IMG/VR virus record: IMGVR_UViG_3300001487_000052
Coordinates: 37,503-101,502 of that record
Length of the DNA stretch: 64,000 nt
DNA from: a virus
Taxonomy: Duplodnaviria > Heunggongvirae > Uroviricota > Caudoviricetes
Strand: one strand, 5' to 3'
Part shown: positions 11,882-37,668 of the stretch, piece after piece
Position numbering within the stretch: position 1 is the first letter of the stretch
Layout: the number at the start of each line of letters is the position of its first letter
Notes under the pieces: model-generated
Told to the model about the DNA's origin: nothing
What the model saw: only the letters and a program-made list of their open reading frames with translations
Database searches by the model: none
Made by a program: the position numbers and the translations under genes

Positions 11882-11887
11882 TAAACC

Positions 11888-16797: not shown

Positions 16798-16799
16798 CT

Positions 16800-18036: not shown

Positions 18037-18082
18037 TCTCGGGATGGTCTTAGAGCCTGCCCTTTGATGTGGATCCCGAGGA
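18037..18082 (+). promoter_or_regulatory. conserved structured intergenic element, copy 2 (TCTCGGGAT...CCCTTTGATGTGGA...ATCCCGAG)
   Basis: Same loop core as copies 1 and 3. Stem arms are swapped yet still complementary. Ends 29 nt before the 18111 start. Confidence 0.55.
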
Positions 18083-18110
18083 CTAAAGAAAACAGTTAAA
18101 TTACAGAACA

Positions 18111-22600: not shown

Positions 22601-22602
22601 AT

Positions 22603-23883: not shown

Positions 23884-23887
23884 TATT

Positions 23888-24193
23888 ATGTACAGAAAAA
23901 AAAATAAAATAATAACAGCTAAAAATGATCCTTCCAATTACGTTTTTGGATATGATATTTATGATTCACTCCTTTTCTCACTCATTAACGATACGACTTT
24001 AGAGCGGGAAAATCATGAAATTACTGTACATGAATATCGACCAGACTTAATTGCACAGGATATTTACGGATCTACTTCTTATCTTGGTCTTTTTCTACTT
24101 CAAGTCAAAAAACCCCTTGCTGACTTAAAGAGAGGGACTATTTTAAGTGTTCTACCAAAAACTGTACTAGATACTATAATTAAAAATATGTGA
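23888..24193 (+). CDS. hypothetical protein (101 aa)
   Basis: ORF. Its stop overlaps the next start. Confidence 0.4.
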   Translation: MYRKKNKIITAKNDPSNYVFGYDIYDSLLFSLINDTTLERENHEITVHEYRPDLIAQDIYGSTSYLGLFLLQVKKPLADLKRGTILSVLPKTVLDTIIKNM

Positions 24194-25290
24194 GTATGAC
24201 AGAAATGGTAAATACACAAAACATTTCTATAGAGTTAACTCCTTGGACTGATCAATACTTCTCTATAGATTGGCTACAGCTTAAGGAAGAGCTTGGGGGA
24301 AATCTACCTGTAGGAAAAGCATCTCTAATATTCCCAAGAAATGAAGATTCTTTAAACTTATTGCTGGAAGAAAATACAGGGAAACTCTTATTTTCAGATA
24401 ATAATGATTCAGGATTTAATTTTGAACTTCCCATCTTCATAACTTCTAGAGGATACAATGAAAATGCATTAGTAATAGATTTTACATGTACTCCCTCCAA
24501 TAAGTTTTTTGAAGAACGAATCTCTGGGACCTACGATAATATACAAAATGCCATAGAAACAGTATATCCAGGTACTCTCGATATTAGAGTAGAATCTGAT
24601 CAAAATAATGAACAAAAAATCCACCAAAACTGTGAGACGTCTTTAAACTTTCTTAGACGACTTGGGTATTCTTATAAAGCAGATACTGTTTTTGGATTTT
24701 CTTGGACAGGTTTTTTGATTAAGGATATAATAGGGACGAGTTCTACAGGGAAAGATGAAAGTATAGATGATGACCTTCCAGAGATTATTGGTGGTGGAAC
24801 TGGAAATCTCACGAACACTCAACCCTATACTCTTACCTATAGTAGAAAAGAGAACTATCCTGTTATTAATCCCTGGACCGACGAAGATAATACATTACAA
24901 GAAACATATTCTGACTATATTCCAAAAAATGTAATTTCAGTATTAGGTACAACGTATTATATTTGTCGAGCAGGGTTTGAGGATATGATTAAAAACTATA
25001 TCATAAATACTACAAAGATTAATGCTGGCTATAGCGTAAAATATTCTATTACTGGCTCTCTTATGCCAAATTCTTATAGGCTAGGAGACCTCATTAAATA
25101 TAGAAGAGCTGATGATGAAGAATATATTAATGATCCAGACTACTATACCAAGTGTTTAGTCTTTAGCAATGAAGTGTTTATAGGAAATGGTCAAGATATT
25201 GTTGGTCCTCATGGTTTTAACTTTGAATGGACTACAGAACTCAGAGGTATAGAAGAAGGACCTTGGACTAAAATTAAAGAAACAGAATAA
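24190..25290 (+). CDS. hypothetical structural protein (366 aa)
   Basis: Long co-directional ORF. Confidence 0.5.
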   Translation: MSMTEMVNTQNISIELTPWTDQYFSIDWLQLKEELGGNLPVGKASLIFPRNEDSLNLLLEENTGKLLFSDNNDSGFNFELPIFITSRGYNENALVIDFTCTPSNKFFEERISGTYDNIQNAIETVYPGTLDIRVESDQNNEQKIHQNCETSLNFLRRLGYSYKADTVFGFSWTGFLIKDIIGTSSTGKDESIDDDLPEIIGGGTGNLTNTQPYTLTYSRKENYPVINPWTDEDNTLQETYSDYIPKNVISVLGTTYYICRAGFEDMIKNYIINTTKINAGYSVKYSITGSLMPNSYRLGDLIKYRRADDEEYINDPDYYTKCLVFSNEVFIGNGQDIVGPHGFNFEWTTELRGIEEGPWTKIKETE

Positions 25291-25296
25291 ACAAAA

Positions 25297-25343
25297 TTCC
25301 CAGGACGATCTAAGAATCTACCCTTTAATGTGGATCCTGGGAA
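25297..25343 (+). promoter_or_regulatory. conserved structured intergenic element, copy 3 (TTCCCAGGA...CCCTTTAATGTGGA...TCCTGGGAA)
   Basis: Stem differs from copy 1 by a compensated A-to-G / T-to-C pair. Inner mini-hairpin GATctaagaATC is also compensated. Confidence 0.55.
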
Positions 25344-25392
25344 CAATTACCTTATATTTGAAATGAAAAAATAGAATTTCTATTAATCTATA

Positions 25393-25767
25393 ATGGACAA
25401 AAACGACTTCAGGCTTAGATTCTTGCATAAAAAATTATATCTTAAAGAATTCTCCCCTCGTGCTAATTTAGGTCTTCTTTATTACAAAAATAACAAAAAA
25501 GCAATATACTCTGTTTTGTTTAATGTAGTAAATGAAGGAAGAGAACTAATTATAAGAGATATACCAAAAACCTTAGACTTAGATCTTGATATCGCTGTTA
25601 TTGCTGTGGAGAGGCTATTAGAGTTATTAGATCCAGATATAACACACGCAATGATTAATTCATCCTGGCAATTTGAGTTTTATAGTAGAAAATTAAACTT
25701 CTATAGAAAACATCCATATTCTTGTATGATGACTTTTGAAAAATCAACAGAAGGATATGTTTTTTAA
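25393..25767 (+). CDS. hypothetical protein (124 aa), first gene of the accessory island
   Basis: ORF downstream of element copy 3. Confidence 0.35.
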   Translation: MDKNDFRLRFLHKKLYLKEFSPRANLGLLYYKNNKKAIYSVLFNVVNEGRELIIRDIPKTLDLDLDIAVIAVERLLELLDPDITHAMINSSWQFEFYSRKLNFYRKHPYSCMMTFEKSTEGYVF

Positions 25768-25939
25768 GTGGATAATCATAGTGGCCCTTATTCTTGGTTT
25801 CATAGGGGCAATAGTAAGTTTCATCCGGTTAGCAAATAAAAAAGATACCACCCCCATACAATTAATAGCTATGGCCTTGGATATTGCTTATTTTCCAGGA
25901 GGGGCCGTTCTTTTACTTTGGATATTAGGTATTATATGA
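25736..25939 (+). CDS. small two-helix membrane protein (holin-like topology; speculative)
   Basis: 67 aa with two hydrophobic helices (WIIIVALILGFIGAIVSFI; FPGGAVLLLWILGII). Confidence 0.3.
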   Translation: MKNQQKDMFFKWIIIVALILGFIGAIVSFIRLANKKDTTPIQLIAMALDIAYFPGGAVLLLWILGII

Positions 25940-26202
25940 AAATTGGTAAAGAAAGGGACTTGGTGTATATATTCCCTAAAAAGAAGGGACACAAATATTA
26001 TAAACCCGGACTAAAGGCATTCATAAAACTCTTGAATGGTAAGGTTTGTACAGGGGTTTTGTATTTTAAAGTCGACCAAAATAGGAATTTTATAGTGGAA
26101 GACCAACAATCTGCTGCACTAGACCATGAGAATATAAAACGAGCTTTTGCGACTTGGTTCTTATCTATTCCAGGGACAAATAAAATAATATGGTTAAAGT
26201 AA
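25918..26202 (+). CDS. hypothetical protein (94 aa)
   Basis: ORF only. Confidence 0.3.
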   Translation: MDIRYYMKIGKERDLVYIFPKKKGHKYYKPGLKAFIKLLNGKVCTGVLYFKVDQNRNFIVEDQQSAALDHENIKRAFATWFLSIPGTNKIIWLK

Positions 26203-26576
26203 TAATCCCAAGAAAATACGGATTATATAAAATCTACGATGAAGTAAAACAAATTGACAACACTAACCGACTCTTAATATTTAAGAAAAATATACCTTAT
26301 CTAGTATATGGTTTCTTGTTCTATTCTTGCTTTGATGATAGGATAGAGCTACTAGATTGGTTATTATACAATGGTTCAGATATAGATACTGACTTAACAA
26401 AAATATTATTATATTTCTTAAAAACAAAGGGATCTATAGCAGTAAACCTAGAAAAAACCAGGCTCGAATATGGTGATTATAAGTGGGTATCTGAACTTTT
26501 GGGTAGTGTAGAAGAAGTAGTAGAAATAACAAATAAAGCAAATATAATATGGAAACTGAAAGACTGTACTACTTAG
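26190..26576 (+). CDS. hypothetical protein (128 aa)
   Basis: ORF only. Confidence 0.35.
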   Translation: MVKVIIPRKYGLYKIYDEVKQIDNTNRLLIFKKNIPYLVYGFLFYSCFDDRIELLDWLLYNGSDIDTDLTKILLYFLKTKGSIAVNLEKTRLEYGDYKWVSELLGSVEEVVEITNKANIIWKLKDCTT

Positions 26577-27208
26577 GTGTAGTAAAAAATATAATAGAAG
26601 ATGAAGATAATGGAATAACTAAGGAATACGGAATTATAGAAGCTGATATCCCCGGTGTTATTCAAGGTATACGAGCATTTCCCAAGCGCGACGAACTTAA
26701 CGAGCCAAAGCCTGGGGATGCTATTTTATTACTCTGTCTTGACCCTATTCTTAATTCTTACTGGATTTATGAAAGAATTAAGGAGAATGATTTTATAGGG
26801 ATTAGAGCAGCAGGAAAAATGATTGATATAACTCCCGATTATATAAGCATAGGAATATTCGATAAGGACTCAGAATATAAAGAAGATGAGCGGCCTGAAA
26901 TGAAAACTTACCTGAAACTAGACTCGGAAGGGAACTTAGAAATAAAGACAGAAGGAAACACGAGTATAGAGGTCAAGGGGAATACTGAGATAAAAACTGA
27001 GGGAGATACAAATATAGAAACCTCCGGAACAACAGATATAAAATCGAATGGGGCCTGTACTATAAATTCCCCCGATGTAAAGGTGACAGGAGGAAAACTA
27101 ACTGTGAATGGTGCTGGAGTTGCTAATGGACAGGGTGGATTTTGTGGTCTTCCAAACTGCCTCTTTACTTCCGCACCTCACGTAACTAACACAATAACTG
27201 GAACTTAA
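26549..27208 (+). CDS. baseplate central spike protein (gpV / gp5-like: N-terminal OB-fold plus octapeptide beta-helix repeats)
   Basis: GVIQGIRAFPKRDELNEPKPGDAILLLCLDP resembles the gpV OB-domain pattern (vRvrfp...P-x-GD-x-VlvlF). Tandem 8-aa repeats IKTEGNTS/IEVKGNTE/IKTEGDTN/IETSGTTD/IKSNGACT. Confidence 0.55.
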   Translation: METERLYYLGVVKNIIEDEDNGITKEYGIIEADIPGVIQGIRAFPKRDELNEPKPGDAILLLCLDPILNSYWIYERIKENDFIGIRAAGKMIDITPDYISIGIFDKDSEYKEDERPEMKTYLKLDSEGNLEIKTEGNTSIEVKGNTEIKTEGDTNIETSGTTDIKSNGACTINSPDVKVTGGKLTVNGAGVANGQGGFCGLPNCLFTSAPHVTNTITGT

Positions 27209-27228
27209 TTCTGACCCTTATACCTGAG

Positions 27229-27648
27229 ATGATAAAGTACATAGGTAATGATATGTTTTTATTAGAGAAAAAAACAGAACCAATAACCTCTCTTAATCTT
27301 TTTGGTATATATCGCCTCCATAATGAATTTATAAGTGATGTAGAGGATAATATAGAAATAGAGACAAGTAAGCTAGAAGAAATAGAGGATGGACTTATAA
27401 TGCGAGTTGCTACAATATCCATAATCCTCTTACTCCGACATATAAAGCATGAAATTGTCTTTAATGAACTCTACTTATCTCAAAAACAAGCTTATCTCCA
27501 CGTACAATATGAAGATGGGATTGAAATAGAAACTAAGTTCAATGCAGGAGAAGAAGAAAGACTAATTCTTTGCTTGAAAGATAAGGATGGTTTTGAATTA
27601 AATAATATAGGTCTCAGGTTAAATGAACTCACAGAACTTATTTCCTAA
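27229..27648 (+). CDS. MIKYIGND-family protein, paralog A
   Basis: N-terminus MIKYIGNDMF. Paralog of 30249-30662, sharing MIKYIGND and (V/A)TI(S/A)IIL(L/S)LR. Confidence 0.45.
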   Translation: MIKYIGNDMFLLEKKTEPITSLNLFGIYRLHNEFISDVEDNIEIETSKLEEIEDGLIMRVATISIILLLRHIKHEIVFNELYLSQKQAYLHVQYEDGIEIETKFNAGEEERLILCLKDKDGFELNNIGLRLNELTELIS

Positions 27649-27768
27649 GTTAATCGGAATAAAGAAGTGAATTATACGAGAAGAAAAATGTCTGGAGCTC
27701 TTAGAAAGGAAACGTGGAAAATAAAAAACTAATCCCCGTAAACATCTATAACTTTAATATATACGAAG

Positions 27769-28359
27769 ATGCCATTAGTAGTTGATGATATGACACAGAA
27801 GGTTAAGAATGATATGTCTAACCTTGTCAACCAGAACATGTCAACAGATGAAGATGGGAACCAGGTATTGACAGAGGATGGGGCTAAGAATATTGCTTCT
27901 AATTCTTTACAAACACTGTGGTCTTCAATCTGTTCCTATATATCCCAAAACTCAGTTGTACAGGCTTCTTGGACTGCTACTAATCCGAATTCTGGCGTTC
28001 CCGATCCTGTAGTAGTTATAACAGGAAAAATAAACGCTATAGAAGGAACTGGATTACAACAAGCACCCCTAAAACCTTGTACAGACGCTACTTCCGCTTT
28101 ATCAATACTATCCGGACAAATGAACCTACTAATGATGACTTGGAATGTAAGCTGGGATGATCCGACTCTCCTTGTCTCTCCAGTTCTCCTCATGACTCCG
28201 CTTATAATACTCACGCCGGTAGGAGAGGGCGGAGATGGACTTGGGGATATATGTGAAAAAATAATTGAATCAGTAAAAAATACCGCCCATTATACACCGG
28301 CGTTTTCAGGTACTCATGCGGCTTTTACTGGAGGAGGAGCACTAACTTCTATAGTATGA
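27769..28359 (+). CDS. hypothetical protein (196 aa)
   Basis: ORF; Gly-rich C-terminus. Confidence 0.4.
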   Translation: MPLVVDDMTQKVKNDMSNLVNQNMSTDEDGNQVLTEDGAKNIASNSLQTLWSSICSYISQNSVVQASWTATNPNSGVPDPVVVITGKINAIEGTGLQQAPLKPCTDATSALSILSGQMNLLMMTWNVSWDDPTLLVSPVLLMTPLIILTPVGEGGDGLGDICEKIIESVKNTAHYTPAFSGTHAAFTGGGALTSIV

Positions 28360-28667
28360 TATTAAACTCAGAAAAGCTACGAAATGATCTTCATAACTCT
28401 CCGGGAATTAGAAAAAAGATATCCTGGTTAGAAAAGGTGTTAAAAGAGTTTGATAGAATTGATTGTGAGGATATAGAGATACGTCTTAGTCGATTTGATC
28501 ATTCCTTCTTCATAATTCGTATTATAACCTGGGAATATGTGGCAGTTATAAGAATAATTTCTAGGAACTTCTTTACTTATGATCTAAAACTGACAGGTGG
28601 ATCTATTACAAGTGGAGAAAGAAATACACTAAGAGAAATATGTGACATCCTGCTTCAAAACTCCTAA
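28356..28667 (+). CDS. hypothetical protein
   Basis: ORF only. Confidence 0.3.
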   Translation: MILNSEKLRNDLHNSPGIRKKISWLEKVLKEFDRIDCEDIEIRLSRFDHSFFIIRIITWEYVAVIRIISRNFFTYDLKLTGGSITSGERNTLREICDILLQNS

Positions 28668-28675
28668 AATAGGTC

Positions 28676-28939
28676 ATGGGAACTATGAAGAAAAGAAGGA
28701 TTTGGTTAGAAAAGGCAATAGAAAAACTAGAAAATGCAGGGATAGAAATTATCTGGATAAGACCTCTTAAAGACATTATCCCAGGTTTTATATTTGAAGT
28801 TAAGACAAAGAAAACAGTACTAGAATTAAGAGTCTATAGTAGGTCGAGCTGGAGAATTTATAGTACTCATAACACAACATATAGAATTACAAAATCAATA
28901 GAAGAATGCATAAAAGAAATAGAAAGTGGGAAAGATTGA
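28676..28939 (+). CDS. hypothetical protein
   Basis: ORF only. Confidence 0.3.
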   Translation: MGTMKKRRIWLEKAIEKLENAGIEIIWIRPLKDIIPGFIFEVKTKKTVLELRVYSRSSWRIYSTHNTTYRITKSIEECIKEIESGKD

Positions 28940-29166
28940 TAAAAGAAAATGGAGTGGGGAAAATAATGAAAGTGTCGGGAGATGGGTATTCTATATATTG
29001 TGAATGGATCAAACCAAACTATTACCTTATCTTCCGCAGAACACAAGATCCAGAAATTTATATAGTCCACCTTGAAATACACGGAGAAGACGATAGTGAG
29101 TTTAAAGAATTCTATCTTGGTGCTCTTAGATTACAGAAAGGAATAGTGTGGTGCGAAAAAATGTAG
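28906..29166 (+). CDS. hypothetical protein
   Basis: ORF only. Confidence 0.3.
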   Translation: MHKRNRKWERLIKENGVGKIMKVSGDGYSIYCEWIKPNYYLIFRRTQDPEIYIVHLEIHGEDDSEFKEFYLGALRLQKGIVWCEKM

Positions 29167-29372
29167 AAAAAGTGTTTATTGTGGGAGACCCTGGAGAAAA
29201 AGTAATTGGGACATTTGAAGGTGAGTATGATGTTCCAAGAGGTAGAAGGGAAGAATCAATGAAAGTACTCCTAAAAAATCTAAGAAGGCGAAACTCCTCT
29301 AATATTATAAAGAGAAAAACCACTCAACACAGCAATAAAAAAAAGAAACATGAGAACAATGACAATTATTGA
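29148..29372 (+). CDS. small EKVFIV-family protein, paralog A
   Basis: VEKVFIVGDPGEKVIGTFEGEYDVPRGRREES parallels the 29519 ORF. Confidence 0.35.
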   Translation: MVRKNVEKVFIVGDPGEKVIGTFEGEYDVPRGRREESMKVLLKNLRRRNSSNIIKRKTTQHSNKKKKHENNDNY

Positions 29373-29518
29373 TCCAGAAACAGGAGAGATTTTAACGGGA
29401 GAGATTAGTACTCCAACAGAAGAAGCATTAAAAGCTGGAAAAAGATATTACCAAAAGATGAAGAAGAAAAACAACCCTAGTCTAAAAAATCAAAACTAAT
29501 AACAAAAAAAAGAATAAC

Positions 29519-29704
29519 ATGGAAAAAGTATTTATTGTTGAGGAAACAGGAGAAAAGATAGTTGGAACGATTGAGGGTATTTATAAGGTTCCAGAAGGGA
29601 GAATAGAGGAATCCCTGAGAGAGTTCCTCAAAAAAAGAAAACAAAAACAGTTTTCTAATAAAGAAAAGAAGAAATATTTAATAAAACGAAAATCAGGAAA
29701 ATGA
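29519..29704 (+). CDS. small EKVFIV-family protein, paralog B
   Basis: MEKVFIVEETGEKIVGTIEGIYKVPEGRIEES. ATGA overlap with 29701. Confidence 0.35.
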   Translation: MEKVFIVEETGEKIVGTIEGIYKVPEGRIEESLREFLKKRKQKQFSNKEKKKYLIKRKSGK

Positions 29705-30252
29705 TGATAATATTTAGAGAAAAATTATTTAGAAGGGATGATGTTTCTGATAATGATTTAAAGCAACTACTTGATGATCCAGACCTAGTTAAAGAATACG
29801 GTCCCTCCGAGTTGATTATAATAGCTTCAAAAAAATATAATGAGGATCTGAAAAAACTAGGAATAAAAGGTAGTGCTGATAGAAACGTACTAGAAAAATT
29901 AAAAAAGGATGTAAGAAGCGGATACCTATTTAATGATGGTCCTGGAAAGGGAGATACACACCCGTTAGGAGATTTTTCTAAAAAAGATAAATCTTATGTA
30001 TTTTCTAAAAAGATATCAGAACAGCATAGATTTAACTATCGAATCTTTCCACCAAAATTAGAACTGGATGATAAAACAGGAAAACTCAGATACGGAAGAA
30101 AAGTTATATTAGTTTCTTGTTATGGCCATGAAACAGAAGAAGGGGATTATTTAAATGATAAAAATCTCCGCTCTAGGAAGAATAGAATGAGAGGAAATGC
30201 GCCTTATCGTAAATCTGAATCTATAATGAAGAAAAAGAAAAAAAATAGATGA
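29701..30252 (+). CDS. MIIxREK-family protein
   Basis: N-terminus MMIIFREKLFRR. ATGA overlap with 30249. Confidence 0.5.
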   Translation: MMIIFREKLFRRDDVSDNDLKQLLDDPDLVKEYGPSELIIIASKKYNEDLKKLGIKGSADRNVLEKLKKDVRSGYLFNDGPGKGDTHPLGDFSKKDKSYVFSKKISEQHRFNYRIFPPKLELDDKTGKLRYGRKVILVSCYGHETEEGDYLNDKNLRSRKNRMRGNAPYRKSESIMKKKKKNR

Positions 30253-30662
30253 TAAAATACATAGGTAACGATAATTTTAATGTAGATGGAGAAATAATAA
30301 AATCTACTGACTTAATCGAGGGTTGTGTGGGTTGGTATTTTAAACATGTGAGTAGCTGGCTGTGGAATGAGAAAAAACTTTGGGATCCTGAGCTAGATGA
30401 ATCTATTATCAGTCGTGTAAAAACTATTGCCATTATTCTTAGCCTCCGAACCTCATCTCCAATTTCTTACTACATAATAGACTTCCAAACACCTAGGATA
30501 TGCTATTTCAAAGTTTTATATGAAGATTACCTAGATATACGATTAACTTTTACATATGACCAAGTAAATTCGTTTTCTATGATGACCGACCCTAACTACC
30601 CTGGAGATATAATGACAATAGAAAATATAAGCATTCAAGATATAATAGAAATAATTAAATAA
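30249..30662 (+). CDS. MIKYIGND-family protein, paralog B
   Basis: N-terminus MIKYIGNDNF. Paralog of 27229-27648. Confidence 0.45.
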   Translation: MIKYIGNDNFNVDGEIIKSTDLIEGCVGWYFKHVSSWLWNEKKLWDPELDESIISRVKTIAIILSLRTSSPISYYIIDFQTPRICYFKVLYEDYLDIRLTFTYDQVNSFSMMTDPNYPGDIMTIENISIQDIIEIIK

Positions 30663-30664
30663 AT

Positions 30665-30739
30665 GGTGTGTATAGCTCAATTGGTTAGAGCTCTAGATTG
30701 TGGTTCTAGGGGTTGTCAGTTCGATTCTGACTACACACC
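30665..30739 (+). tRNA. tRNA-His (anticodon GUG) with genomically encoded G-1
   Basis: Manual fold. G-1 at 30665. Acceptor GTGTGTA/TACACAC. D-stem GCTC/GAGC. Anticodon stem CTAGA/TCTAG with loop TTGTGGT. T-arm GTCAG-TTCGATT-CTGAC. Discriminator C at 30739. CCA not fully encoded. Confidence 0.8.
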
Positions 30740-30974
30740 CAAAATAAAGATGAAGATAGGAGACTGTTTTTATCTTTTTTGTTTGCTGTGGAATGGTTTA
30801 AGGGGGTGGAGTGGTTCCCTTCGAGACGAGCGTAGCGAAGTCGAGATCCAACTCGAACTAATAAATCAAAGCTAAGTATTTTAAGCGGAACGCTTTAATA
30901 ATATAGCTTTAAATCTCTAGTTCGAATAATTACCAAGAGAGCCGCCTTCCCGGTGCCCGCCAGAATTCTATTAC

Positions 30975-31143
30975 GTTCGTTCATTCCTCACTATGTTCGT
31001 CATTACCTCACTACATAACGAATTCAACCCGGCTCTCTTTATCTTACGGGTTATCCTCGTTAAAAATTTCTTCTCGCTTCCATCCGTTGCTCGTAGCGAA
31101 ATTTTTTGGAAATCTTAACGTTTCGTTCGTTCCTCACTACACT
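30975..31143 (+). repeat. iteron-like direct repeats (GTTCGTTCATTCCTCACTA x3, degenerate) in a 530-bp noncoding region
   Basis: R1 30975-30993, R2 30996-31014 (adjacent), R3 31125-31143. A shared 9-mer CGTAGCGAA also occurs at 30832-30840 and 31094-31102. Confidence 0.45.
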
Positions 31144-31316
31144 AATTTCCAACACTCGTCCGGGAACCCTAAGATAGAAAGAAATATCCTACATAGATGG
31201 ATTAATAAAAATTGGAAATTGGAAAATATTCCTCCATATAAACCCAACAACGTTTTTAGGAATTAAAATTGGAAAAACACAGTCTAGAAAATCTTAAATC
31301 CTAATAGATGAATGAT

Positions 31317-31348
31317 GAAAGGGTACCAGTCCAGAGGTGTACCCTTTC
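31317..31348 (+). promoter_or_regulatory. perfect 10-bp-stem hairpin (GAAAGGGTAC/GTACCCTTTC, 12-nt loop) about 60 nt upstream of the helicase-like gene
   Basis: Read directly. Followed by a palindrome GTATAC-TTGGAATA-GTATAC at 31371-31390. Confidence 0.4.
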
Positions 31349-31409
31349 CAGATGATGATTATAACGTAACGTATACTTGGAATAGTATACCCTTAAAACA
31401 AATTAAATT

Positions 31410-33503
31410 ATGAATGATAATGAAGAAAGAAAAATGAATGTTATACCAATAGAAGTTCCTGAAGATGTTGAATATATTTCCCAATGGACTTCTTTTGTTT
31501 ATCCCATGGGAAATGTAATTCTTGATAAAACTATTTGTGGGTGTGGATTTACTGAATACTGTTTAAATAACACCATTCCAACTGTTTTATGTAGTCCCAG
31601 AAAGAAATTATTAGAGAACAAAGAAGAACAACATAATAGTGGTGAAAATCCACAGATGAGACCTATATATTATTTCAGAAATGACTATGAAAATAATATA
31701 GAATATGATAGTAGTAAAAATGAAGAGAAACTAAAAACCCCATTTGATAGTAATGAGGAGAGTTCATCTAATTATCTTTTTGCTATTAAGGAACAAGAAA
31801 ACCTAGACAAATTAGCAAAATCAGAAAAGAAGGATTATCTATCTCCTATTAAAGATCAACTTCGTTCCTATATTGAATCTTGTAGTAGTCAAAGCAGTCC
31901 ATTTAAAATTATTGTTACTTACGATTCCCTTCATCATGTACTGGATGTTCTTAATGAATATTACTCTTCTAGTTCTTATGTTATTGTTGTGGATGAATTT
32001 CAATCAATTTTTATGGATGCGTCTTTTAAGGCAGAGGTAGAGTTAGATTTTGTAGAAGATGTAAAGGGTTGTGCTAATGTTCTCTATCTATCAGCTACAC
32101 CAATGCTAGAGAAATATTTAGTTGAACTAGATTATTTCTGTGATCTCCCTATGTACAAATTTAAGTGGAATGAAAAGAGAGTAGAAAATGTAAGGTCAGA
32201 ATTAAGAATAGTAAAGAGTATAAATAATGAAGTTTCTAAGATTATACAGAACTATAGGGAAGGAAAGTATTTTGATAAAGTTCTTTCTGATGGTACTATA
32301 AGATACTCAAAAGAACTAGTAATATTTGTTAATTCTATTAGATCTATTTGTGATATTATTCGTAAATGTGATCTTAAACCAGAGGAAACTAATATAATAT
32401 GCTCTGATTCTTCTACCAATATAAAACAATTAAAGAGAGTGGGACATCAAATAGGAAACATACCTACATTTGGTCAACCACATAAGATGTTTACTTTATG
32501 TACCCGAACTACTTATCTTGGAGCAGATTTTTATTCTACTAACGCTTTTACGGTAGTTTGTTCAGATTGTAATATTCAGACTATGACAATTGATATTTCT
32601 CTAGACTTACCACAAATCTTAGGTAGACAGAGGTTAAAAGAGAATGTGTTTAGAAATGAAGTACTAATCCTTTATAAATCAGAAACAAAGAAAGGTGCTA
32701 TAATAAATGAAAAGAAGTTAGTTAATGATGAGAAAGTAAAATATAAAGAGGGAAGAACGCTTGAATTATTAGAGGGATATAATAAGATGTCAGATAGAGA
32801 AAAAGAGTTATGTGCAGAGAAATGGGCTAATGATAAAAACCTCTATAAAAATGATTATATAGGTATATCTAATCGTACAGGAAAAGCTACATTCAATTAC
32901 CTAGTTAAGATAGCTGATAAACGAGCCTATGATGTAACTAGAAAAGAATATATAGATGACATTACAATCAGAAGAGGAATTGAATCTATTGAATCTTCTA
33001 ATATAACGATTGTAGATAATATTAATACTGAGCTTCAAGGGGCTTATGAATACTTTATTTCTGAGTTCGATAAGGATAATAATTTTGAAAGAAGAATGAA
33101 GTTGCTATGTGATACTTATTTTCAGTATCCAGGTTTCTTTCAGGCTTATTCTAGTTCTCCACTTCAATGTATTATTCCTATTAACTATCAAAATTATATT
33201 AATCTTTTAGGTTTTGAAAGAATAAAAGCTTTGAAATATAGAGAGTCAGATATAATTTCCTATATTCAATCTCAACAAAATCTACAAAACTCTTCTATAA
33301 CTTCTCTCTTCAATGTAGGAGATAAATATACTACAAAACAAATAAAAGAAGTGTTAGCAAATTTTTACTCTCTCAATTCTATTACTAAAACTGCTAAAGC
33401 TTCAGATCTCGAGCAATATTATATTCTCAAAGCCATTAAACTCAAAGTAGGAGATAAGTGGGAGCATGGATTTGAGATAATAGCTATAAAATCCCAGCCC
33501 TAA
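31410..33503 (+). CDS. SF2 helicase/NTPase-like protein (DExQ box)
   Basis: IVVDEFQSIF (Walker B/DExQ-like, about nt 31985) and LYLSATP (motif III-like SAT, about nt 32085). No canonical GxGKT Walker A was seen, so assignment is tentative. Confidence 0.45.
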   Translation: MNDNEERKMNVIPIEVPEDVEYISQWTSFVYPMGNVILDKTICGCGFTEYCLNNTIPTVLCSPRKKLLENKEEQHNSGENPQMRPIYYFRNDYENNIEYDSSKNEEKLKTPFDSNEESSSNYLFAIKEQENLDKLAKSEKKDYLSPIKDQLRSYIESCSSQSSPFKIIVTYDSLHHVLDVLNEYYSSSSYVIVVDEFQSIFMDASFKAEVELDFVEDVKGCANVLYLSATPMLEKYLVELDYFCDLPMYKFKWNEKRVENVRSELRIVKSINNEVSKIIQNYREGKYFDKVLSDGTIRYSKELVIFVNSIRSICDIIRKCDLKPEETNIICSDSSTNIKQLKRVGHQIGNIPTFGQPHKMFTLCTRTTYLGADFYSTNAFTVVCSDCNIQTMTIDISLDLPQILGRQRLKENVFRNEVLILYKSETKKGAIINEKKLVNDEKVKYKEGRTLELLEGYNKMSDREKELCAEKWANDKNLYKNDYIGISNRTGKATFNYLVKIADKRAYDVTRKEYIDDITIRRGIESIESSNITIVDNINTELQGAYEYFISEFDKDNNFERRMKLLCDTYFQYPGFFQAYSSSPLQCIIPINYQNYINLLGFERIKALKYRESDIISYIQSQQNLQNSSITSLFNVGDKYTTKQIKEVLANFYSLNSITKTAKASDLEQYYILKAIKLKVGDKWEHGFEIIAIKSQP

Positions 33504-33556
33504 AAACGGGAGCGACCACTTTTTAAGGAGTTTTTGATATGAAACCCTTATATATG

Positions 33557-33594
33557 TAGAGAAGTTTGATTATCAGCTTCTCTACTGTTTTGTT
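33557..33594 (+). terminator. terminator-like hairpin after the helicase-like gene
   Basis: TAGAGAAG...CTTCTCTA stem followed by CTGTTTTGTT. Confidence 0.4.
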
Positions 33595-33615
33595 AATAAA
33601 AACCTAATATTTGAG

Positions 33616-34029
33616 ATGAAAAAGAGTAAAAAATATTTAATTAATCCAGATCTTAAGATAGTAAAAAAATATCATGATAAGACGGGGTTGAAAATTTATA
33701 TATTTGAACAACCAATGACAATTAGTGGTGTCTCTTTTACTAACCTTTTACTTGAGGTATATGAAGACAAGGACTATTTTGGTTTTATAGAATCTGGGTG
33801 GCCTGTTGATAGAGACAAGGTTTATGAATATATTAGATGTGTAGAACTTTTTATATTCAGAAAAAATTGGCCACATTGGAATAAATTACAAAAAAGAAGA
33901 TTACTTAGGATCATACGTGAATTTCCTTTACACCCAGGAACAACATATGGGGATTTTCTATATCAAGATGGAAGGGTTAATTGGGATAAGGTAGAGGAAT
34001 ATGAGACTAATCATAAAAAACATGAATAA
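33616..34029 (+). CDS. hypothetical protein, tandem paralog A (PLH-x-G...GDF...DGRV-W-K-YE family)
   Basis: RRLLRIIREFPLHPGTTYGDFLYQDGRVNWDKVEEYE parallels the next ORF. Confidence 0.45.
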   Translation: MKKSKKYLINPDLKIVKKYHDKTGLKIYIFEQPMTISGVSFTNLLLEVYEDKDYFGFIESGWPVDRDKVYEYIRCVELFIFRKNWPHWNKLQKRRLLRIIREFPLHPGTTYGDFLYQDGRVNWDKVEEYETNHKKHE

Positions 34030-34423
34030 AGGAAAATATTTACGCTCTAGTTTATCAGATAGAGAAATAGTAAGTGTGTTTAAGAATAAATCAGGAAATC
34101 GAGTCGTACTATATAAAGTATTCAAACCTGTGTCTTACTATTATGTTGTCGTTAGTAATTCATACAGGACAATATGCGATCTTATTTCAGGATTGCCAGA
34201 CGAAGAAGAGGCCGAGTATTATTTGAGGGACATAGAAAAGTATACAAAAAGAATAAAAGATAAAACAACGAGGAGATATTTTCTAAGACTTGTACGATCT
34301 CTTCCACTACATCAAGGAAAGTTGTTCGGGGACTTTATGTTTTCAGATGGCAGAGTAGATTGGGAGAAAATTAAAAAATATGAACAACAGTTTCCAGGAT
34401 GGGAGACTAGAATAAAACCATAA
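34001..34423 (+). CDS. hypothetical protein, tandem paralog B
   Basis: RRYFLRLVRSLPLHQGKLFGDFMFSDGRVDWEKIKKYE. Confidence 0.45.
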   Translation: MRLIIKNMNKGKYLRSSLSDREIVSVFKNKSGNRVVLYKVFKPVSYYYVVVSNSYRTICDLISGLPDEEEAEYYLRDIEKYTKRIKDKTTRRYFLRLVRSLPLHQGKLFGDFMFSDGRVDWEKIKKYEQQFPGWETRIKP

Positions 34424-34428
34424 TAAGT

Positions 34429-34608
34429 ATGATAATTTTACGAGAAACGAATTATTCTAGAAAATCAGAAATTGAACTAGATGAGGAGATAAAGGATGGA
34501 GCGGAAACCTTCATCAAAGAAATACTAAAGTATATATTAATGAGTAGTAGTCCTTTAATTAGTGAGTGGACTAGAAATCATTGGGCCATAGGGCTTCGAA
34601 TAAGATGA
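34429..34608 (+). CDS. unannotated 59-aa ORF with an MII-family N-terminus (MIILRETNYS)
   Basis: Not in the supplied ORF track. ATG at 34429. Its stop TGA at 34606-34608 overlaps the ATG at 34605 of the next gene (ATGA coupling). Confidence 0.35.
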   Translation: MIILRETNYSRKSEIELDEEIKDGAETFIKEILKYILMSSSPLISEWTRNHWAIGLRIR

Positions 34609-35024
34609 ATCATGTAGGTCCTTCTAGAGCACTTAAACTCTTTCTTGGATTAGTAGATAATTATAAAAACCTACCAAGAAGAAGATATACTCAGGAATTT
34701 GCTATAGAACTTAGGAATAATAAGAAAACCGCTTCTGATTATGTTGATTATATAAAAAATCTTATACGCACAGATCGAAGAACAGGTGAGGGAGTTAAAT
34801 ATCTAGAGGCATTGAAAACAGCTGGCGTAGAAGATTCTTATGGCAATCAAGACTTAATCCAGATGTGTAAATTTGCTGCCCTCTGTCTCACTAATCAACT
34901 TAATCCAGAATATGATAACTGGTATGATTCTAAGGTTAAGACTATGCAGGTAGATTGGGACAAGGAAATTAATACCTCTTCTGAAAACCTAAGAGAAATC
35001 CTAAAAACTATAACAGGATATTGA
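34605..35024 (+). CDS. hypothetical protein (start adjusted to ATG 34605; the track start at 34581 is a TTG)
   Basis: MNHVGPS. ORF with ATGA coupling to the upstream small ORF. Confidence 0.4.
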   Translation: MNHVGPSRALKLFLGLVDNYKNLPRRRYTQEFAIELRNNKKTASDYVDYIKNLIRTDRRTGEGVKYLEALKTAGVEDSYGNQDLIQMCKFAALCLTNQLNPEYDNWYDSKVKTMQVDWDKEINTSSENLREILKTITGY

Positions 35025-35317
35025 AAGATCCATTAAAAAAGTTCTATAGGAAAGAGCGATTAAGAAAAAAGATATTCTGGTTGAGTCGTGCTATTTCTCG
35101 TATACAGCCTGGGGGAAAGTATTATGAGATGAATATAGCAAAACAACTTACCCCAGAGAAACCCTATACAGTTGGGGTTACTATATACAGAGAGTCGTGT
35201 ATAGAGAAGATATTAATAACCAGAACAACATATAAGCACTCAAGATTTGTTGACCAAAAGCAAGATATAGGTTGGCAATTGATAAGTGAAGGAAAAACTG
35301 AAGATATAGTATTGTAG
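35021..35317 (+). CDS. hypothetical protein (98 aa)
   Basis: ORF only. Confidence 0.35.
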   Translation: MKDPLKKFYRKERLRKKIFWLSRAISRIQPGGKYYEMNIAKQLTPEKPYTVGVTIYRESCIEKILITRTTYKHSRFVDQKQDIGWQLISEGKTEDIVL

Positions 35318-35345
35318 CTGTATCTTTTTAATTTGCAGATAAAAA

Positions 35346-35687
35346 ATGAGAAAGTATTTATTATCAACAGGTACAGCGACAGATAGACTAGAGTATTATG
35401 TTCTAGATCTTTTTCGACTATACTTAAAAATATACCCTGGAGACATACCCGGGGCTTCAGGACTTGGATTTGATTTTAACTTAGGGGATACTAGGAAAGC
35501 TGATATTCCCAGTGTTGTCTCATCACGTATGTTAGACTTAGTAAACAAAATCCAGGCTCGTTTTACAGGAGGGGTTAAAATTTCCCTAGACTCCGTAGAA
35601 ATTATAGATGAGACGCGTGCAAGAATAGTAGTGACAGTAAATAATAGTGTCACAGAGGATATTTATGTTAACTTATACGACGAATGA
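35346..35687 (+). CDS. baseplate wedge protein, gpW / gp25-like
   Basis: 113 aa. IYPGDIPGASGLGFDFNL resembles the GPW_gp25 core (PGE-x-P-FG-x-L). Position immediately upstream of J/I-like genes. Confidence 0.5.
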   Translation: MRKYLLSTGTATDRLEYYVLDLFRLYLKIYPGDIPGASGLGFDFNLGDTRKADIPSVVSSRMLDLVNKIQARFTGGVKISLDSVEIIDETRARIVVTVNNSVTEDIYVNLYDE

Positions 35688-37129
35688 GATCACTACAGGA
35701 TTACAAAAATATATATAGAGAGATAGCCACAAACTTAGGACTACAGGGGGACAGTGTAGAAATGATTGTGCAGCTTCTCTCGTATGCATCTTATATAGAG
35801 GAGAATGAGAATATTGTTTATGCTCAGGAATCTTCTTTAGAAAAGGCCACTCTAATGAACTCTAAGATTCAACTTTGTATGAATGAAATGTACTCTGTTT
35901 TCAGGGGTCAATGTCCTAGAGTTATTATGAGAATTAAGCCTAGGAAATACTTTAGTTTCCAGCCCTTTGATGTCTTAGTTTCTTCCAATAACTTCAAAAT
36001 CTATTATCTCGGTTACATAAGTACAGAGAATAGTGTAGCGGAGGGAATGAGATCGGTGATGTCAGATATTGGTGTTTCTTGTGTCTATGGAGGTAAAACA
36101 GTAAACCCAGGAGACAGTGAGCTTGAGATTATAGGACTTCTTGCTCCAGAAACAGTAAGAGTAGGATGGACGCTTGATACTTCTAACTTATATTATGTGG
36201 ATTGTACGGAGGAAAACTTAAGTAATGATATGTATGCTACTGTTGATGGTGCTCCTAAAGATGTGACTAGAAATTTTTCAGAACACATACTTAGGAATTA
36301 TCTTTTCGACCTTACGCTTACTTCCTTTGGTTCTAGGTTATATACAGGAAAAATGGATCCTAGTACAGCAATAACAGCCACATATTTTAAATTTTCTACT
36401 CTTTCAGACTACAACATCTCAGAGCTTAAGAAGATAAACATAAAGGGAGCTGAGATGGTAAGCTTCCCTAATAATAAGTGGCAAGGAATAGATGAGTTTA
36501 TTCCTGGGGTTGTACTTCTAGATGCTACCGGAAGAGATGGGCTTAATACAATACACTACAAAGCTTATAAAGATAGATTTGTAAATACCATCTTACGTTC
36601 TAATTCGGATATAGGGGCAGTTTTAGAGGAGATGTACCCAGAGAAAGTTAGGAGTACGAATTATGAGTTTAATTATACTACAGAACACTCAGACCTCACT
36701 ATATATTACGTCCCTCAAAATACTAGAAATCCCCTTACTTCTTCGGAAATTTCAAAGTTTATACAGGAAAGAAGGGCTTATTATGTGACGGATCAGATTA
36801 CAGTACAGCCAGGAATAGTATACAATGCTATTATTTCTGTGGACCTAGAGCTATATGAGAATACTAGTGTTGACAATGAGGTAGCTACTATTCTTGAGTC
36901 CTACGGTAAAAAGTTCTGTATTAACTTAGAGGAGGAGAAAGAGGCAATTCAAACCCTACTCTCTAAAATCTCTAATATCAATAAAGTAAGTAACCTAAAT
37001 ATAACTTACATAGATCAATCTGGAAATGAAGTACCTAAAGATAATATAGGTCAGATTTATGAGAATATAGACCAAACTTATTTCGAGATTGACTACGTTA
37101 TTAATTCTATAGTGAGGACAGAGTCATGA
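35684..37129 (+). CDS. baseplate protein J-like (by synteny)
   Basis: 481-aa ORF, ATGA-coupled to the gpW-like gene, in the W-J-I-fiber order typical of P2-like baseplates. Confidence 0.35.
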   Translation: MRSLQDYKNIYREIATNLGLQGDSVEMIVQLLSYASYIEENENIVYAQESSLEKATLMNSKIQLCMNEMYSVFRGQCPRVIMRIKPRKYFSFQPFDVLVSSNNFKIYYLGYISTENSVAEGMRSVMSDIGVSCVYGGKTVNPGDSELEIIGLLAPETVRVGWTLDTSNLYYVDCTEENLSNDMYATVDGAPKDVTRNFSEHILRNYLFDLTLTSFGSRLYTGKMDPSTAITATYFKFSTLSDYNISELKKINIKGAEMVSFPNNKWQGIDEFIPGVVLLDATGRDGLNTIHYKAYKDRFVNTILRSNSDIGAVLEEMYPEKVRSTNYEFNYTTEHSDLTIYYVPQNTRNPLTSSEISKFIQERRAYYVTDQITVQPGIVYNAIISVDLELYENTSVDNEVATILESYGKKFCINLEEEKEAIQTLLSKISNINKVSNLNITYIDQSGNEVPKDNIGQIYENIDQTYFEIDYVINSIVRTES

Positions 37130-37668
37130 AAATATTTGTTCCATTATACTTAAGAGATATCCCAGTAATTTCTCAGTTTGTTCAGATTTATAGTAAGTAT
37201 GCAGAAGACTATAGAGAAGATCCGAGAGATAGCCTAGCCGATTATAGAGAGTCTCTGAAAAGAGATCCTGTAAAATATTTTGTAGGCATGTGTTTTGATG
37301 AAGAGGAGCTTGGGGATAAGTACGATGATATAGTAAATTATGTATCTCGTCTCTTTGAATCTGTAAAGGGAACTGAGAAGATATTTGACTACATGAAAAA
37401 GTACTTAAATGATTATCTCGACATACAGGGGGAGCCAACTTACACAGGACAATATATAGAGATTATGTTTGGTGCCTTAGTTCTCACGGATGAAGAACAT
37501 TTTTATACATCCTTATATAATTTCCTCAGTGCCCTCTTGGTATTTGAAGACCTTATCACAAATATAGGAGATTTAGGTCTGACAGTTAAAGATGAGATAA
37601 CTAATTATGTAGCAGCAGATGTTATATGCTACAAAAAATATAATATAAATTATGAAGCTAGTAATTAA
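37126..37668 (+). CDS. baseplate protein I-like (by synteny and size, 180 aa)
   Basis: Coupled ORF between the J-like gene and the first fiber gene. Confidence 0.3.
   Translation: MKIFVPLYLRDIPVISQFVQIYSKYAEDYREDPRDSLADYRESLKRDPVKYFVGMCFDEEELGDKYDDIVNYVSRLFESVKGTEKIFDYMKKYLNDYLDIQGEPTYTGQYIEIMFGALVLTDEEHFYTSLYNFLSALLVFEDLITNIGDLGLTVKDEITNYVAADVICYKKYNINYEASN

Follow-up and report, generated by a model that had tools for sequence, protein, structure and literature searches.

Archaeal multi-origin chromosomes pair origins with cis-linked initiators, as in the oriC-cdc6/whiP arrangement. In phages, groups of small ORFs with fast turnover and no known function are found at fixed junctions of conserved genes, as in the hyperplastic regions of T4-like phages, morons and diversity hotspots (PMC2984593; bioRxiv 10.1101/2024.10.15.618418).

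The locus analysed here belongs to a rumen phage and lies in a stretch of 64,000 nucleotides (the window). As in the baseplate modules of P2 (V-W-J-I) and Mu (gp45-46-47-48), the genes run from the tape measure through a 426-aa protein, a 101-aa protein, a hub-like protein, the spike (V), W, J and I to the fibres. In contrast to those modules, V and W are never adjacent in the clade of the window phage because an SF2 cassette intervenes, and J and I have diverged too far to match any profile. We conclude that the interval is very probably a composite of this ancestral cassette and lineage-specific small genes, and not an acquired island.

Organization of the interval

An earlier note on this DNA had described a V-like spike gene and a W-like gene separated by ~8 kb of mostly small genes, with three duplicated gene pairs, a tRNA-His, an iteron-like repeat region, a DExQ helicase-like gene with a terminator and, at the start of the interval, the third copy of a conserved hairpin. 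These features were all recovered, and the gap between V and W measures 8.1 kb, with every gene on the + strand:

25297-25343, +: hairpin element copy 3, just past the hub-like gene, stem TTCCCAGGA/TCCTGGGAA
25393-26576, +: variable zone 1, four small overlapping ORFs (124, 67, 94 and 128 aa)
26549-27208, +: gpV / Mu gp45-like central spike protein, 219 aa (profile matches, synteny)
27229-30662, +: variable zone 2a, 13 tightly packed small ORFs (paralogy, patchy presence)
30666-30740, +: tRNA-His, anticodon GTG (ARAGORN; Rfam, 65.6 bits)
~30750-30785: weak hairpin and T-run after the tRNA-His (read directly from the sequence)
30790-33482, +: SF2 cassette, 2.7 kb, sharply bounded, made of a 620-bp leader and the 697-aa SF2 gene
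30790-31409, +: non-coding leader (alignable across copies, repeats, palindromes)
31410-33503, +: SF2 helicase-like protein, 697 aa (motifs, fold)
33556-33585, +: terminator-like hairpin, 11-bp stem, then a T-run (consensus scan)
33616-35317, +: variable zone 2b (blastp paralogy, comparison with the close relative L009)
33616-34029 and 34001-34423, +: tandem paralogs in zone 2b
34429-34608 plus 34581-35024, +: gene in zone 2b split by a 1-nt deletion
35021-35317, +: 98-aa ORF in zone 2b
35346-35687, +: gpW/gp25-like (structure model)
35684-37129, +: gpJ-like (size, order and conserved synteny only)
37126-37668, +: gpI-like (size, order and conserved synteny only)

The assignments of V and of W, the first gene of the wedge block W-J-I (35346-37668, +), hold moderately well. 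V matches phrog_9992 ('baseplate assembly protein', E 2.8e-8), a profile built from eight V homologs matches T4 gp5 beta-helix and VgrG chains (E ~1e-3), and the V-like gene comes after the hub-like gene in all relatives. The model of W (pLDDT 92.5) has its highest TM-scores with gp25/GPW-type proteins (2ia7, 0.62; P1 baseplate, 0.51; T4 gp25, 0.49), with Foldseek E-values all >0.01. J and I have no profile or PDB match; the W-J-I-fibre order is kept in all relatives.

At least 10 related genomes carry the same SF2 gene between V and W, with a gap there of only 3.3-4.4 kb. The order V-SF2-W (or hub-SF2-W) was found in at least 10 distinct genomes, a 376-kb contig among them, with SF2 identities of 33-76%. 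These comparisons indicate that the split of V and W by the SF2 gene is ancestral. The clade with this arrangement is a large one, made up of large and jumbo myophages associated with ruminants and the gut. Positions 19701-31105 of the window match an independent 154-kb contig at 100% identity. The earlier note had named a shared arrangement with conserved orthologs as evidence against an island; relatives have it for the V-SF2-W core and lack it for the small ORFs.

The interval does not form a single 10-kb island. It contains the V gene and is variable in two places (hub|V and V|W) and, since its SF2 core is ancestral, it was not acquired in one piece. GC and GC3, compared because the earlier note had suggested GC and codon usage as a check, gave no difference (GC/GC3 of 0.329/0.267 for the interval versus 0.352/0.251 for the rest of the genome). 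Another possibility was an integrated element, satellite-like or plasmid-like, that carries a replication module of its own; the helicase-like gene, the adjacent iteron-like region and the terminator-like hairpin would agree with this. However, no island ORF has a profile match, so no integrase was recognised, nor were a recombinase or capsid-interference genes; att-like flanking direct repeats were not found, and the composition is that of the genome. Moreover, all genes are co-oriented and overlap with the structural operon, and the cassette is multi-copy and kept at this site across the clade. We consider such an element highly improbable.

Small genes of the variable zones

Variable zone 1 sits between the hub-like gene (24190-25290) and the spike gene. 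Its ORFs, which have no PHROG matches, are missing in four relatives in which V directly follows the hub-like gene (L002, L003, L005 and L099). A further relative with a 95% identical V, L093, has a deletion of the 128-aa gene. The hairpin element at the start of the interval has three copies (~16752, ~18037 and 25297-25343), whose stems vary with compensating changes while the loop of ~23 nt, TAAGAATCTACCCTTTAATGTGG, is kept. Copy 3 has no T-run on its 3' side and is therefore not a classical terminator.

In zone 2a, start and stop codons overlap or lie ≤20 nt apart at most junctions, with one gap of 120 nt. The three paralogous pairs were upheld by blastp: 27229/30249 (32% identity, E 1.7e-6), 29148/29519 (52%, E 5e-15) and, in zone 2b, 33616/34001 (30%, E 1.8e-15). 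Homologs of zone 2a genes are few in the relatives: L001 has only those of 29350, 29519 and 29701, and L097 those of 27769 and 28356. L001 carries five or six tandem EKVFIV-type copies. In zone 2b, L009 has a single copy of the 137/140-aa gene, and its 194-aa gene is intact. No PHROG, Pfam or PADLOC matches were obtained for the zone 2a ORFs and no profile matches for those of zone 2b. The adjacency of the tRNA-His to the cassette is incidental, since tRNAs are not consistently found beside other cassette copies.

Small ORFs are thus gained or lost at gene scale among relatives with 83-95% identical V proteins, and sequence comparison identifies them as lineage-specific accretions. Some 5 kb of small, co-oriented and often overlapping ORFs and the tRNA-His have accreted at hub|V and V|W. 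They form a hyperplastic accessory region that arose through tandem and dispersed duplication and gene-scale gain and loss.

These properties bear on another proposal of the earlier note, a moron or anti-defence island. On this view all 10 kb would have been acquired horizontally, and the small ORFs would be expressed with the late operon as counter-defence or superinfection-exclusion genes. The small ORFs are indeed accessory in behaviour: their presence or absence at gene scale among close relatives, their paralog expansion, as in L001, and their lack of homologs of known function make a pattern characteristic of hyperplastic regions and diversity hotspots (PMC2984593; bioRxiv 10.1101/2024.10.15.618418). 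In addition, the 183-aa protein encoded at 29701-30252 has an N-terminal MMIIFREK motif common to six proteins encoded among the sheath-to-tape-measure genes, and it could be packaged in the virion. However, the region did not arrive as one block, its GC and GC3 equal those of the genome, and the search of the small ORFs for defence functions (PADLOC, together with PHROG, Pfam and NCBIfam) returned no match. An acquired island of this type is therefore possible but rather doubtful.

The SF2 cassette and its leader

The leader contains the following elements:

30853-30925: imperfect palindrome of ~75 nt
30935-31039: inverted repeat AAGAGAGCCG/CGGCTCTCTT, bracketing the direct repeats at 30976 and 30996
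30976, 30996 and 31122: 18-nt direct repeat TTCGTTCATTCCTCACTA, the third copy outside the inverted repeat
~31054-31120: invariant block
31204-31276: A-rich AAATTGGAAA repeats
~31317-31349 and ~31370-31389: two hairpins just 5' of the ATG

The 18-nt repeat is absent elsewhere in the window (chance expectation 0.09). Six distinct cassette copies, drawn from five or more genomic contexts, have leaders that can be aligned with each other, and the indels are not multiples of 3. A leader identity of 0.79-0.91, where fourfold synonymous sites in the neighbouring ORF reach 0.48-0.67, indicates strong purifying selection. Iteron copy number and orientation differ among cassette copies, and leader length ranges from 0.45 to 0.95 kb across the clade. 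Independent contigs end within the leader.

The 697-aa protein has DEFQ, SAT and QxxGRQR motifs and an SF2 fold, with HSV-1 UL9 origin-binding protein as its top Foldseek match. Its P-loop is atypical (K40-x-I-x-G-x-G-F-T), and the Walker-A lysine is missing throughout the family, which makes ATPase activity uncertain. The C-terminal domain (~170 aa), which probably binds DNA, also occurs in neighbouring GIY-YIG-type nucleases, where it is closest to that of the adjacent SF2 gene in eight of 12 cases. The terminator-like hairpin downstream of the gene lies outside the conserved cassette, whose homology stops at 33482.

Genomes of this clade carry several paralogous cassettes, which are sharply bounded, recombine and break short-read assemblies. 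Copies with 80-86% nucleotide identity were found in no fewer than four further genomic contexts, and those beside tail-fibre, ClpB/NAD, Cpn60 and ClpP/NrdD genes have the same boundaries. The window cassette is 86% identical to a distal copy (L006) and only 75% to the baseplate copy of L009, whose flanks are 90% identical to those of the window. Leader and ORF similarities are discordant between copies. The 376-kb contig has nine cassettes, evenly spaced at ~35-45 kb, with a spacing CV of 0.20 versus 0.86 for random placement (P ~3e-5), a statistic from one contig on which the scan for copies may be incomplete. MUG113/T5orf172 nuclease genes directly follow three of these nine cassettes and at least 12 in IMG/VR loci, and distant homologs in cultured phages likewise have a long upstream gap and a downstream homing nuclease.

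On the favoured reading, each cassette would be a cis-acting site with its own binding protein, probably origin-like. The leader, with its palindromes, iterons and invariant block, would be the cis-acting nucleic-acid element, which the C-terminal domain of the SF2 protein would recognise. The SF2 motor, its Walker-A lysine relocated or absent, might then remodel the DNA at the leader. The even spacing suggests a DNA transaction that is periodic along the genome. Multiple replication origins, each with an origin-binding protein encoded in cis, would be the likeliest candidate. MUG113-type homing nucleases with the same C-terminal domain probably target the same sites and drive cassette mosaicism. 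Of the three readings in the earlier note, a replication-origin cassette appears to fit best, for the central 2.7 kb (30790-33482) and not for the rest; the fit rests on a conserved leader rich in repeats and palindromes followed by an SF2 protein. No change of sign in GC skew was found at the cassette, which counts against an origin, and the divergent gene orientation expected of an origin was not seen around cassettes. An origin-type mechanism is thus a tentative proposal; for architecture and mechanism combined, we regard the case as evenly balanced.

Alternatively, the leader could belong to the SF2 mRNA as a long structured 5' UTR or a cis-regulatory RNA; the SF2 protein would then be an RNA helicase or RNA-binding protein with the leader as its target, for example in autoregulation, and the cassette would be unrelated to replication. 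Consistent with this, RNAalifold gives a z of -7.2 on the + strand relative to column shuffles, with compensatory pairs in the two hairpins near the ATG and in the helix that encloses the iterons, and many fold matches of the SF2 protein are DEAD-box or DExH RNA helicases. Several G-U pairs are found on the + strand, and a C-to-U change in the hairpin nearest the ATG makes a U-G pair (667/676) valid only on that strand. This favours an RNA of the + strand, so the leader may function wholly or partly as RNA. However, structure potential is similar on the two strands: the minus strand has an alignment z of -6.1, and with single sequences it folds better (-5.1 versus -2.4). In L119, inverted iterons replace the 5' block that pairs at long range. 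The C-terminal domain also occurs in GIY-YIG-type DNA nucleases, the leader has no Rfam match, and a UTR leaves the even spacing unexplained. We find an RNA role of this kind somewhat improbable.

Finally, the cassette might be a selfish unit driven by homing endonucleases, spreading among paralogous sites and among co-infecting phages, its baseplate location having no function for the phage. The downstream nuclease genes, the sharp boundaries and mosaic identity, and the variable position and orientation (it precedes V in L001 and is on the minus strand in L002 and L005) would agree with this, but the window copy has no nuclease gene. Besides, purifying selection has acted strongly on the SF2 protein and leader over deep divergence, down to 33% identity and as far as cultured phages of Gammaproteobacteria; even spacing is unexpected from selfish insertion; and SF2 proteins are not known transposases. 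A purely selfish unit is unlikely.

Comparison with known systems

The small genes resemble those of T4-like hyperplastic regions in their duplications and gene-scale indels among close relatives. In contrast to those regions, the hotspot lies inside the baseplate operon, flanks the spike gene on both sides and has a conserved non-structural cassette as its anchor.

Free-standing GIY-YIG/T5orf172 (MUG113) homing endonucleases such as T4 seg and mob also have a parallel here, as the nuclease abuts the SF2 gene in many cassettes with mosaic flanks. Unlike seg and mob, it borrows the C-terminal domain of its neighbour, and it is absent from the window copy. The leader recalls ROOL and GOLLD, large ornate phage-associated ncRNAs, in being conserved, structure-rich and non-coding, 500-600 nt long, in a rumen phage and beside a tRNA. 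It differs from them in having no Rfam match at E below 5, no conserved tRNA adjacency, a constant place upstream of one protein family and strand-symmetric structure potential.

The organization of the cassette resembles that of archaeal oriC-cdc6/whiP and of herpesvirus UL9, an SF2 origin-binding helicase, with oriS/oriL. Here, likewise, a protein that combines an SF2 fold with a separate C-terminal domain is encoded beside a non-coding region of palindromes and short repeats, and, as with other pairs of an origin and a cis-linked initiator, the clade of the window phage has several such units per genome.

Gene order between the spike and wedge genes

The earlier note had regarded window positions 25297-35345 as an accessory island of 10 kb separating baseplate genes V and W. 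The features that it listed are all present, and its observation is right for the most part. The third copy of a conserved hairpin begins exactly at 25297, and three pairs of duplicated genes are found (27229/30249, 29148/29519 and 33616/34001). A tRNA-His gene lies at 30666-30740, the iteron-like region consists of 18-nt direct repeats in a 670-bp non-coding stretch, and the DExQ helicase-like gene is a 697-aa ORF with a DEFQ motif, followed by a terminator-like hairpin and T-run (33556-33585).

All long ORFs from position 1 to ~60.8 kb are on the + strand, and the GC content of the window is ~0.34. Genes recognisable by their products are those for a sheath-like protein, for an HNH endonuclease and for a tape-measure-type protein of 1045 aa that contains an M23 peptidase domain. 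The genes downstream form a Mu/P2-style baseplate series and include several for very large fibre proteins.

4201-5250: gene next to and downstream of that for the sheath-like protein; HNH homing endonuclease (phrog_559, E 1.9e-47)

The V-like protein (26549-27208) has a C-terminal beta-helical spike domain and is encoded after the hub, like the central spikes gpV, Mu gp45 and T4 gp5. Its assignment stands on a match to phrog_9992 (PHROG, E 2.8e-8) and on profile matches to the gp5 beta-helix and VgrG (E 1e-3 to 7e-2), and the hub-V gene order is kept in relatives. The predicted model of the W-like protein (35346-35687; pLDDT 92.5) gave its best TM-scores with 2ia7 (0.62, probability 0.97), the P1 baseplate protein 9ay5_M (0.51) and T4 gp25 (5iv5_BD, 0.49), all with weak Foldseek E-values (>0.01). 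PF04965 was matched weakly by one of 39 homologs (E 0.05). W is thus a putative gpW/gp25-type protein by its best TM-scores, and the J-like and I-like genes are candidates by size, order and synteny. No useful match to W, J or I was found in PHROG, Pfam, NCBIfam or PADLOC, and PDB sequence searches with the W and J profiles gave no meaningful match. In several relatives (L003/L004, positions 10001-12709, and also L023, L086 and L091), the gene for gpJ either forms a 902-aa ORF containing a ~400-aa in-frame insertion or is matched in two pieces, which suggests an intein or inserted domain.

We retrieved related loci via the J-like protein, the SF2 protein family and the V-like protein, and mapped the window proteins onto them; an IMG/VR scan using the V protein alone gave no match. 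V and W are adjacent in none of the mapped relatives. At least 10 distinct genomes, including a 376-kb contig binned as a Bacilli metagenome-assembled genome (MAG), have the order hub, V, long non-coding stretch, SF2 gene, sometimes a nuclease gene, W, J, I and fibre genes, with SF2 identities of 33-76%. The SF2 gene is inverted in L002 and L005, and in the closest IMG/VR relative, L001, it sits just upstream of V. The V-W gap is just 3.3-4.4 kb in the relatives L079, L110 and L063 versus 8.1 kb in the window. As V and W are never adjacent and the SF2 gene separates them in at least 10 genomes, comparative gene order shows the split to be ancestral, the window having the same arrangement swollen by small ORFs. 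Thus, the gap predates this lineage and only its padding is recent. The SF2 core is shared and the small ORFs are patchy, and the proposal of an acquired island does not hold for a site where the cassette is ancestral.

Megablast with the sequence of the island found no nucleotide match in INPHARED. Two metagenome contigs are identical to parts of the window: AUXO010947821 to 25505-27543 and a 154-kb contig from ERZ12302819 to 19701-31105 (both 100% identity). The relatives come from bovine rumen assemblies, and by sequence identity these independent contigs show a ruminant-gut origin. Related contigs encode Cpn60, ClpB-like, ClpP, NrdD and NAD-salvage proteins; the source phage is therefore large and probably a jumbo phage.

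Two other features of the window were observed. Seven proteins of unrelated lengths (121-403 aa; gene starts 607, 1017, 6836, 8044, 15091, 18111 and 29701) share the N-terminal motif M(M)I[IVL][IFLY]R[QE]K.[FY]. The genes for six of them lie between sheath and tape measure, and the seventh (29701-30252) belongs to the island. Such a common start is reminiscent of an N-terminal signal for targeting or processing, possibly comparable to the capsid-targeting sequence of T4 internal proteins. In addition, the three-copy intergenic hairpin (16752-16801, 18037-18086 and 25297-25343) has a ~23-nt conserved loop (TAAGAGTCTACCCTTTAATGTGG) and stems with compensating changes. It is not followed by a T-run and has no Rfam match, and it may serve in the regulation or processing of the late operon.

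Small-ORF zones

Close relatives differ by the presence or absence of whole genes at fixed junctions, as in hyperplastic or moron regions. L093, with a V protein 95% identical, has a deletion of the 128-aa gene at 26190-26576, and L095 and L097 also differ in gene content at small-ORF junctions. The 33616/34001 tandem pair of the window is a single copy in L009, a close relative. Since hub and V adjoin in L002, L003, L005 and L099, there is a second zone of insertion, made up of the four ORFs at 25393-26576. The small ORFs are thus shown to be lineage-specific accretions. Most of them overlap or lie at most 20 nt apart, and these tight junctions suggest co-transcription with the structural operon.

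The small ORFs have the same GC and GC3 as the rest of the genome. Codon usage of the island does diverge (JS 0.021 versus a null of 0.009); this is owing to an amino-acid composition rich in K, R, I and L, with GC3 unchanged. Searches of the small ORFs against PHROG, Pfam, NCBIfam and PADLOC gave no match except one chance-level PADLOC match at 0.0076, and no described defence or anti-defence system was recognised with these libraries. Such hotspots typically serve accessory or counter-defence functions, and a role of this kind is putative for the small ORFs of the window. The alternative that the region is a satellite or integrated mobile element is effectively excluded: we found no integrase, recombinase or att repeats, the GC content is that of the genome, and the cassette is conserved in relatives.

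Other observations concern individual genes. Relative to L009, a 1-nt deletion near 34585 splits a 194-aa gene (intact in L009) into ORFs of 59 and 147 aa (34429-35024), and identity over this gene is a patchwork of near-identical blocks amid divergent ones; possible explanations of the split are a pseudogene, a programmed frameshift and an error of assembly. The EKVFIV-type small gene (61-74 aa, basic C-terminal tail) has five or six tandem copies in L001 (4858-6132) versus two in the window. The 137/140-aa tandem genes were considered as derivatives of the SF2 C-terminal domain, but no similarity was detected.

The cassette leader and the SF2 protein

The cassette (30790-33482) starts with a non-coding leader. 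Six distinct leader copies are alignable across ~560 nt, with indel lengths that are not multiples of three. Leader identity is 0.79-0.91 versus 0.48-0.67 at fourfold synonymous sites of the adjoining ORF, which indicates strong purifying selection and shows the leader to be a constrained non-coding element. It contains a ~75-nt imperfect palindrome, an invariant ~65-nt block and A-rich repeats (GGAAA). An inverted repeat brackets the 18-nt iterons, whose number differs between copies; in L119 iterons are present in inverted orientation at the 5' edge. The window has three of these 18-nt repeats, all within the non-coding stretch. More distant cassettes have leaders that are unalignable yet comparably long (~0.45-0.95 kb) and repeat-rich. 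An IMG/VR scan for a 30-nt leader motif gave no match.

Is the leader a structured UTR or another RNA element? Two hairpins ahead of the ATG carry compensatory changes, and one U-G pair in the ATG-proximal hairpin favours + strand RNA at that hairpin. With RNAalifold, both strands fold at energies well below those of column-shuffled controls (z -7.2 and -6.1); a signal on both strands reflects inverted-repeat content that is assignable to neither RNA nor DNA. Among the Rfam covariance models scanned (ROOL, GOLLD, group I/II introns and others), tRNA-His alone reached the gathering threshold, and nothing credible was found at E <5 in 30500-31500. We regard an RNA element as an unlikely, though not implausible, explanation. 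A minus-strand ncRNA, prompted by a better single-sequence z-score, was discarded, as the alignment-level test favours neither strand.

The protein has two RecA-like domains, as in SF2 helicases. Motifs II (D195-E196-F-Q198), III (S228-A-T230) and VI (Q402..G405-R406-Q-R408) are invariant in 49 sequences, and Pfam DEAD, ResIII and SNF2 weakly match some family members. PDB sequence searches with the protein and its profile gave no meaningful match. The Walker A motif GxGK[ST] (motif I) is replaced by C-G-C-G-F-T. In every homolog examined, proteins of cultured Edwardsiella and Psychrobacter phages among them, the residue at position F47 is F, Y, A or G and never K. K40, four residues ahead of the first glycine (G44), is invariant. 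Cysteines C43, C45 and C51, which flank the loop, are also invariant across the family. These residues may point to a catalytic lysine at a shifted position or to a metal site.

In many cassettes, the ORF after the SF2 gene codes for a MUG113/T5orf172 nuclease of the GIY-YIG superfamily. Inteins or introns in the SF2 gene were considered for the ~1-kb longer matches, which are in fact these separate ORFs. The nuclease gene starts at the SF2 stop codon in L013 (6052-7080), L017, L024, L025, L033, L104, L106, L108 and others. Its C-terminal ~170 aa are homologous to the SF2 C-terminus and, for 8 of 12 nucleases, closest to the C-terminus of the neighbour, being copied from it or co-evolving with it. 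A domain common to both proteins and closest between neighbours marks the SF2 C-terminus, from about residue 520 to residue 697, as a putative nucleic-acid recognition module with cassette-specific evolution, and the nucleases are a plausible engine of cassette exchange. The homologs in cultured phages also have a long upstream gap, and in D'Alembert an HNH nuclease gene follows.

Copies, spacing and possible role of the cassettes

DNA comparison revealed that the unit recurs in other contexts at 80-86% identity.

L006: cassette copy beyond the tail fibres
L010 and L121: cassette copies beside ClpB/NAD genes
L118: cassette copy after Cpn60
L119: cassette copy beside ClpP/NrdD

The window copy is 86% identical to the distal copy of L006 versus 75% to the baseplate copy of L009, whose flanks are 90% identical, and leader and ORF similarities are discordant among copies; therefore, cassette units recombine. 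The cassette is thus shown to be ancestral at the baseplate site, multi-copy and recombining. Several independent contigs end inside the leader, as expected of a repeat. The tRNA is not part of the unit, as other copies lack it.

The gene orientation flips at 60835-63704 (minus strand), where the GC content locally reaches 0.42-0.47 and a 665-aa SPFH/Band-7 domain protein is encoded. This segment is collinear with L006, in which an acetyltransferase-like gene and another SF2 cassette come next. As collinearity extends to the window end, ~130 bp short of the L006 cassette, a second copy probably lies just past position 64000 on the minus strand.

In IMG/VR, 470 SF2-family loci were found, with at least three paralogs in ~95-kb contigs and at least five listed in single ~340-kb contigs. 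Nine copies lie 28-60 kb apart on the 376-kb contig JAGAYY010000025.1 (CV 0.20 versus 0.86 for random placement, P ~3e-5). This contig belongs to the 'Bacilli bacterium RGIG8901' MAG, a GTDB species-representative genome, and phage genes for hub, V, W, J and I occur on it together with the nine cassettes; the contig is probably that of a jumbo phage mistaken for bacterial sequence in binning.

The leader would be a cis site read by the C-terminal domain of its own SF2 protein, and the even spacing would point to a DNA transaction that recurs periodically along the genome; the simplest candidate is a set of several origins with cis-linked initiators. We put this forward tentatively. The earlier note had offered a replication-origin cassette among its options; of these, it fits the evidence best, though for the central 2.7 kb only. 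As to an iteron-type origin, the cassette has just three 18-nt repeats, next to the A-rich GGAAA repeats and the SF2 gene; against the origin reading, there is no skew switch, no divergent gene orientation and no Walker lysine, and the leader may instead act as RNA. A purely selfish homing unit, which recombination and the adjoining nucleases might suggest, seems to us improbable for the evenly spaced, constrained cassettes.

On the multiple-origin reading, the large or jumbo gut phages of this clade might replicate, or otherwise organise their DNA, from many sites ~35-45 kb apart, each set by its own lysine-less SF2 paralog, a proposal that we also consider possible rather than likely. Each paralog would read a cassette-specific leader via a swappable C-terminal domain, homing nucleases copying the same recognition domain would reshuffle the units, and one such unit would be permanently embedded between the spike and wedge genes.

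The most interesting result goes beyond the framing of the earlier note: a very large unannotated family of lysine-less SF2 proteins with conserved leaders, at regular intervals in big gut phages. Members of the family also occur in cultured phages, namely Edwardsiella phage ET-ABTNL-9, Psychrobacter phage D'Alembert and Acinetobacter phage Phab24. An interrupted baseplate operon is not necessarily the work of a foreign island. As repeats, the cassettes break up short-read assemblies of jumbo phages from rumen and gut, and at least one contig of a Bacilli-labelled MAG representing a GTDB species has the look of such a phage. Should the cassettes be sites of replication or genome organisation, they would account for the fast copying of phage genomes of hundreds of kilobases and would define a protein family of >4,500 members without a Pfam family. 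Literature searches turned up nothing specific on helicases in multiple copies or on huge phages with several origins. Multi-origin replicons with cis-linked initiators are known in archaea and eukaryotes; to our knowledge, none was previously known in phages.
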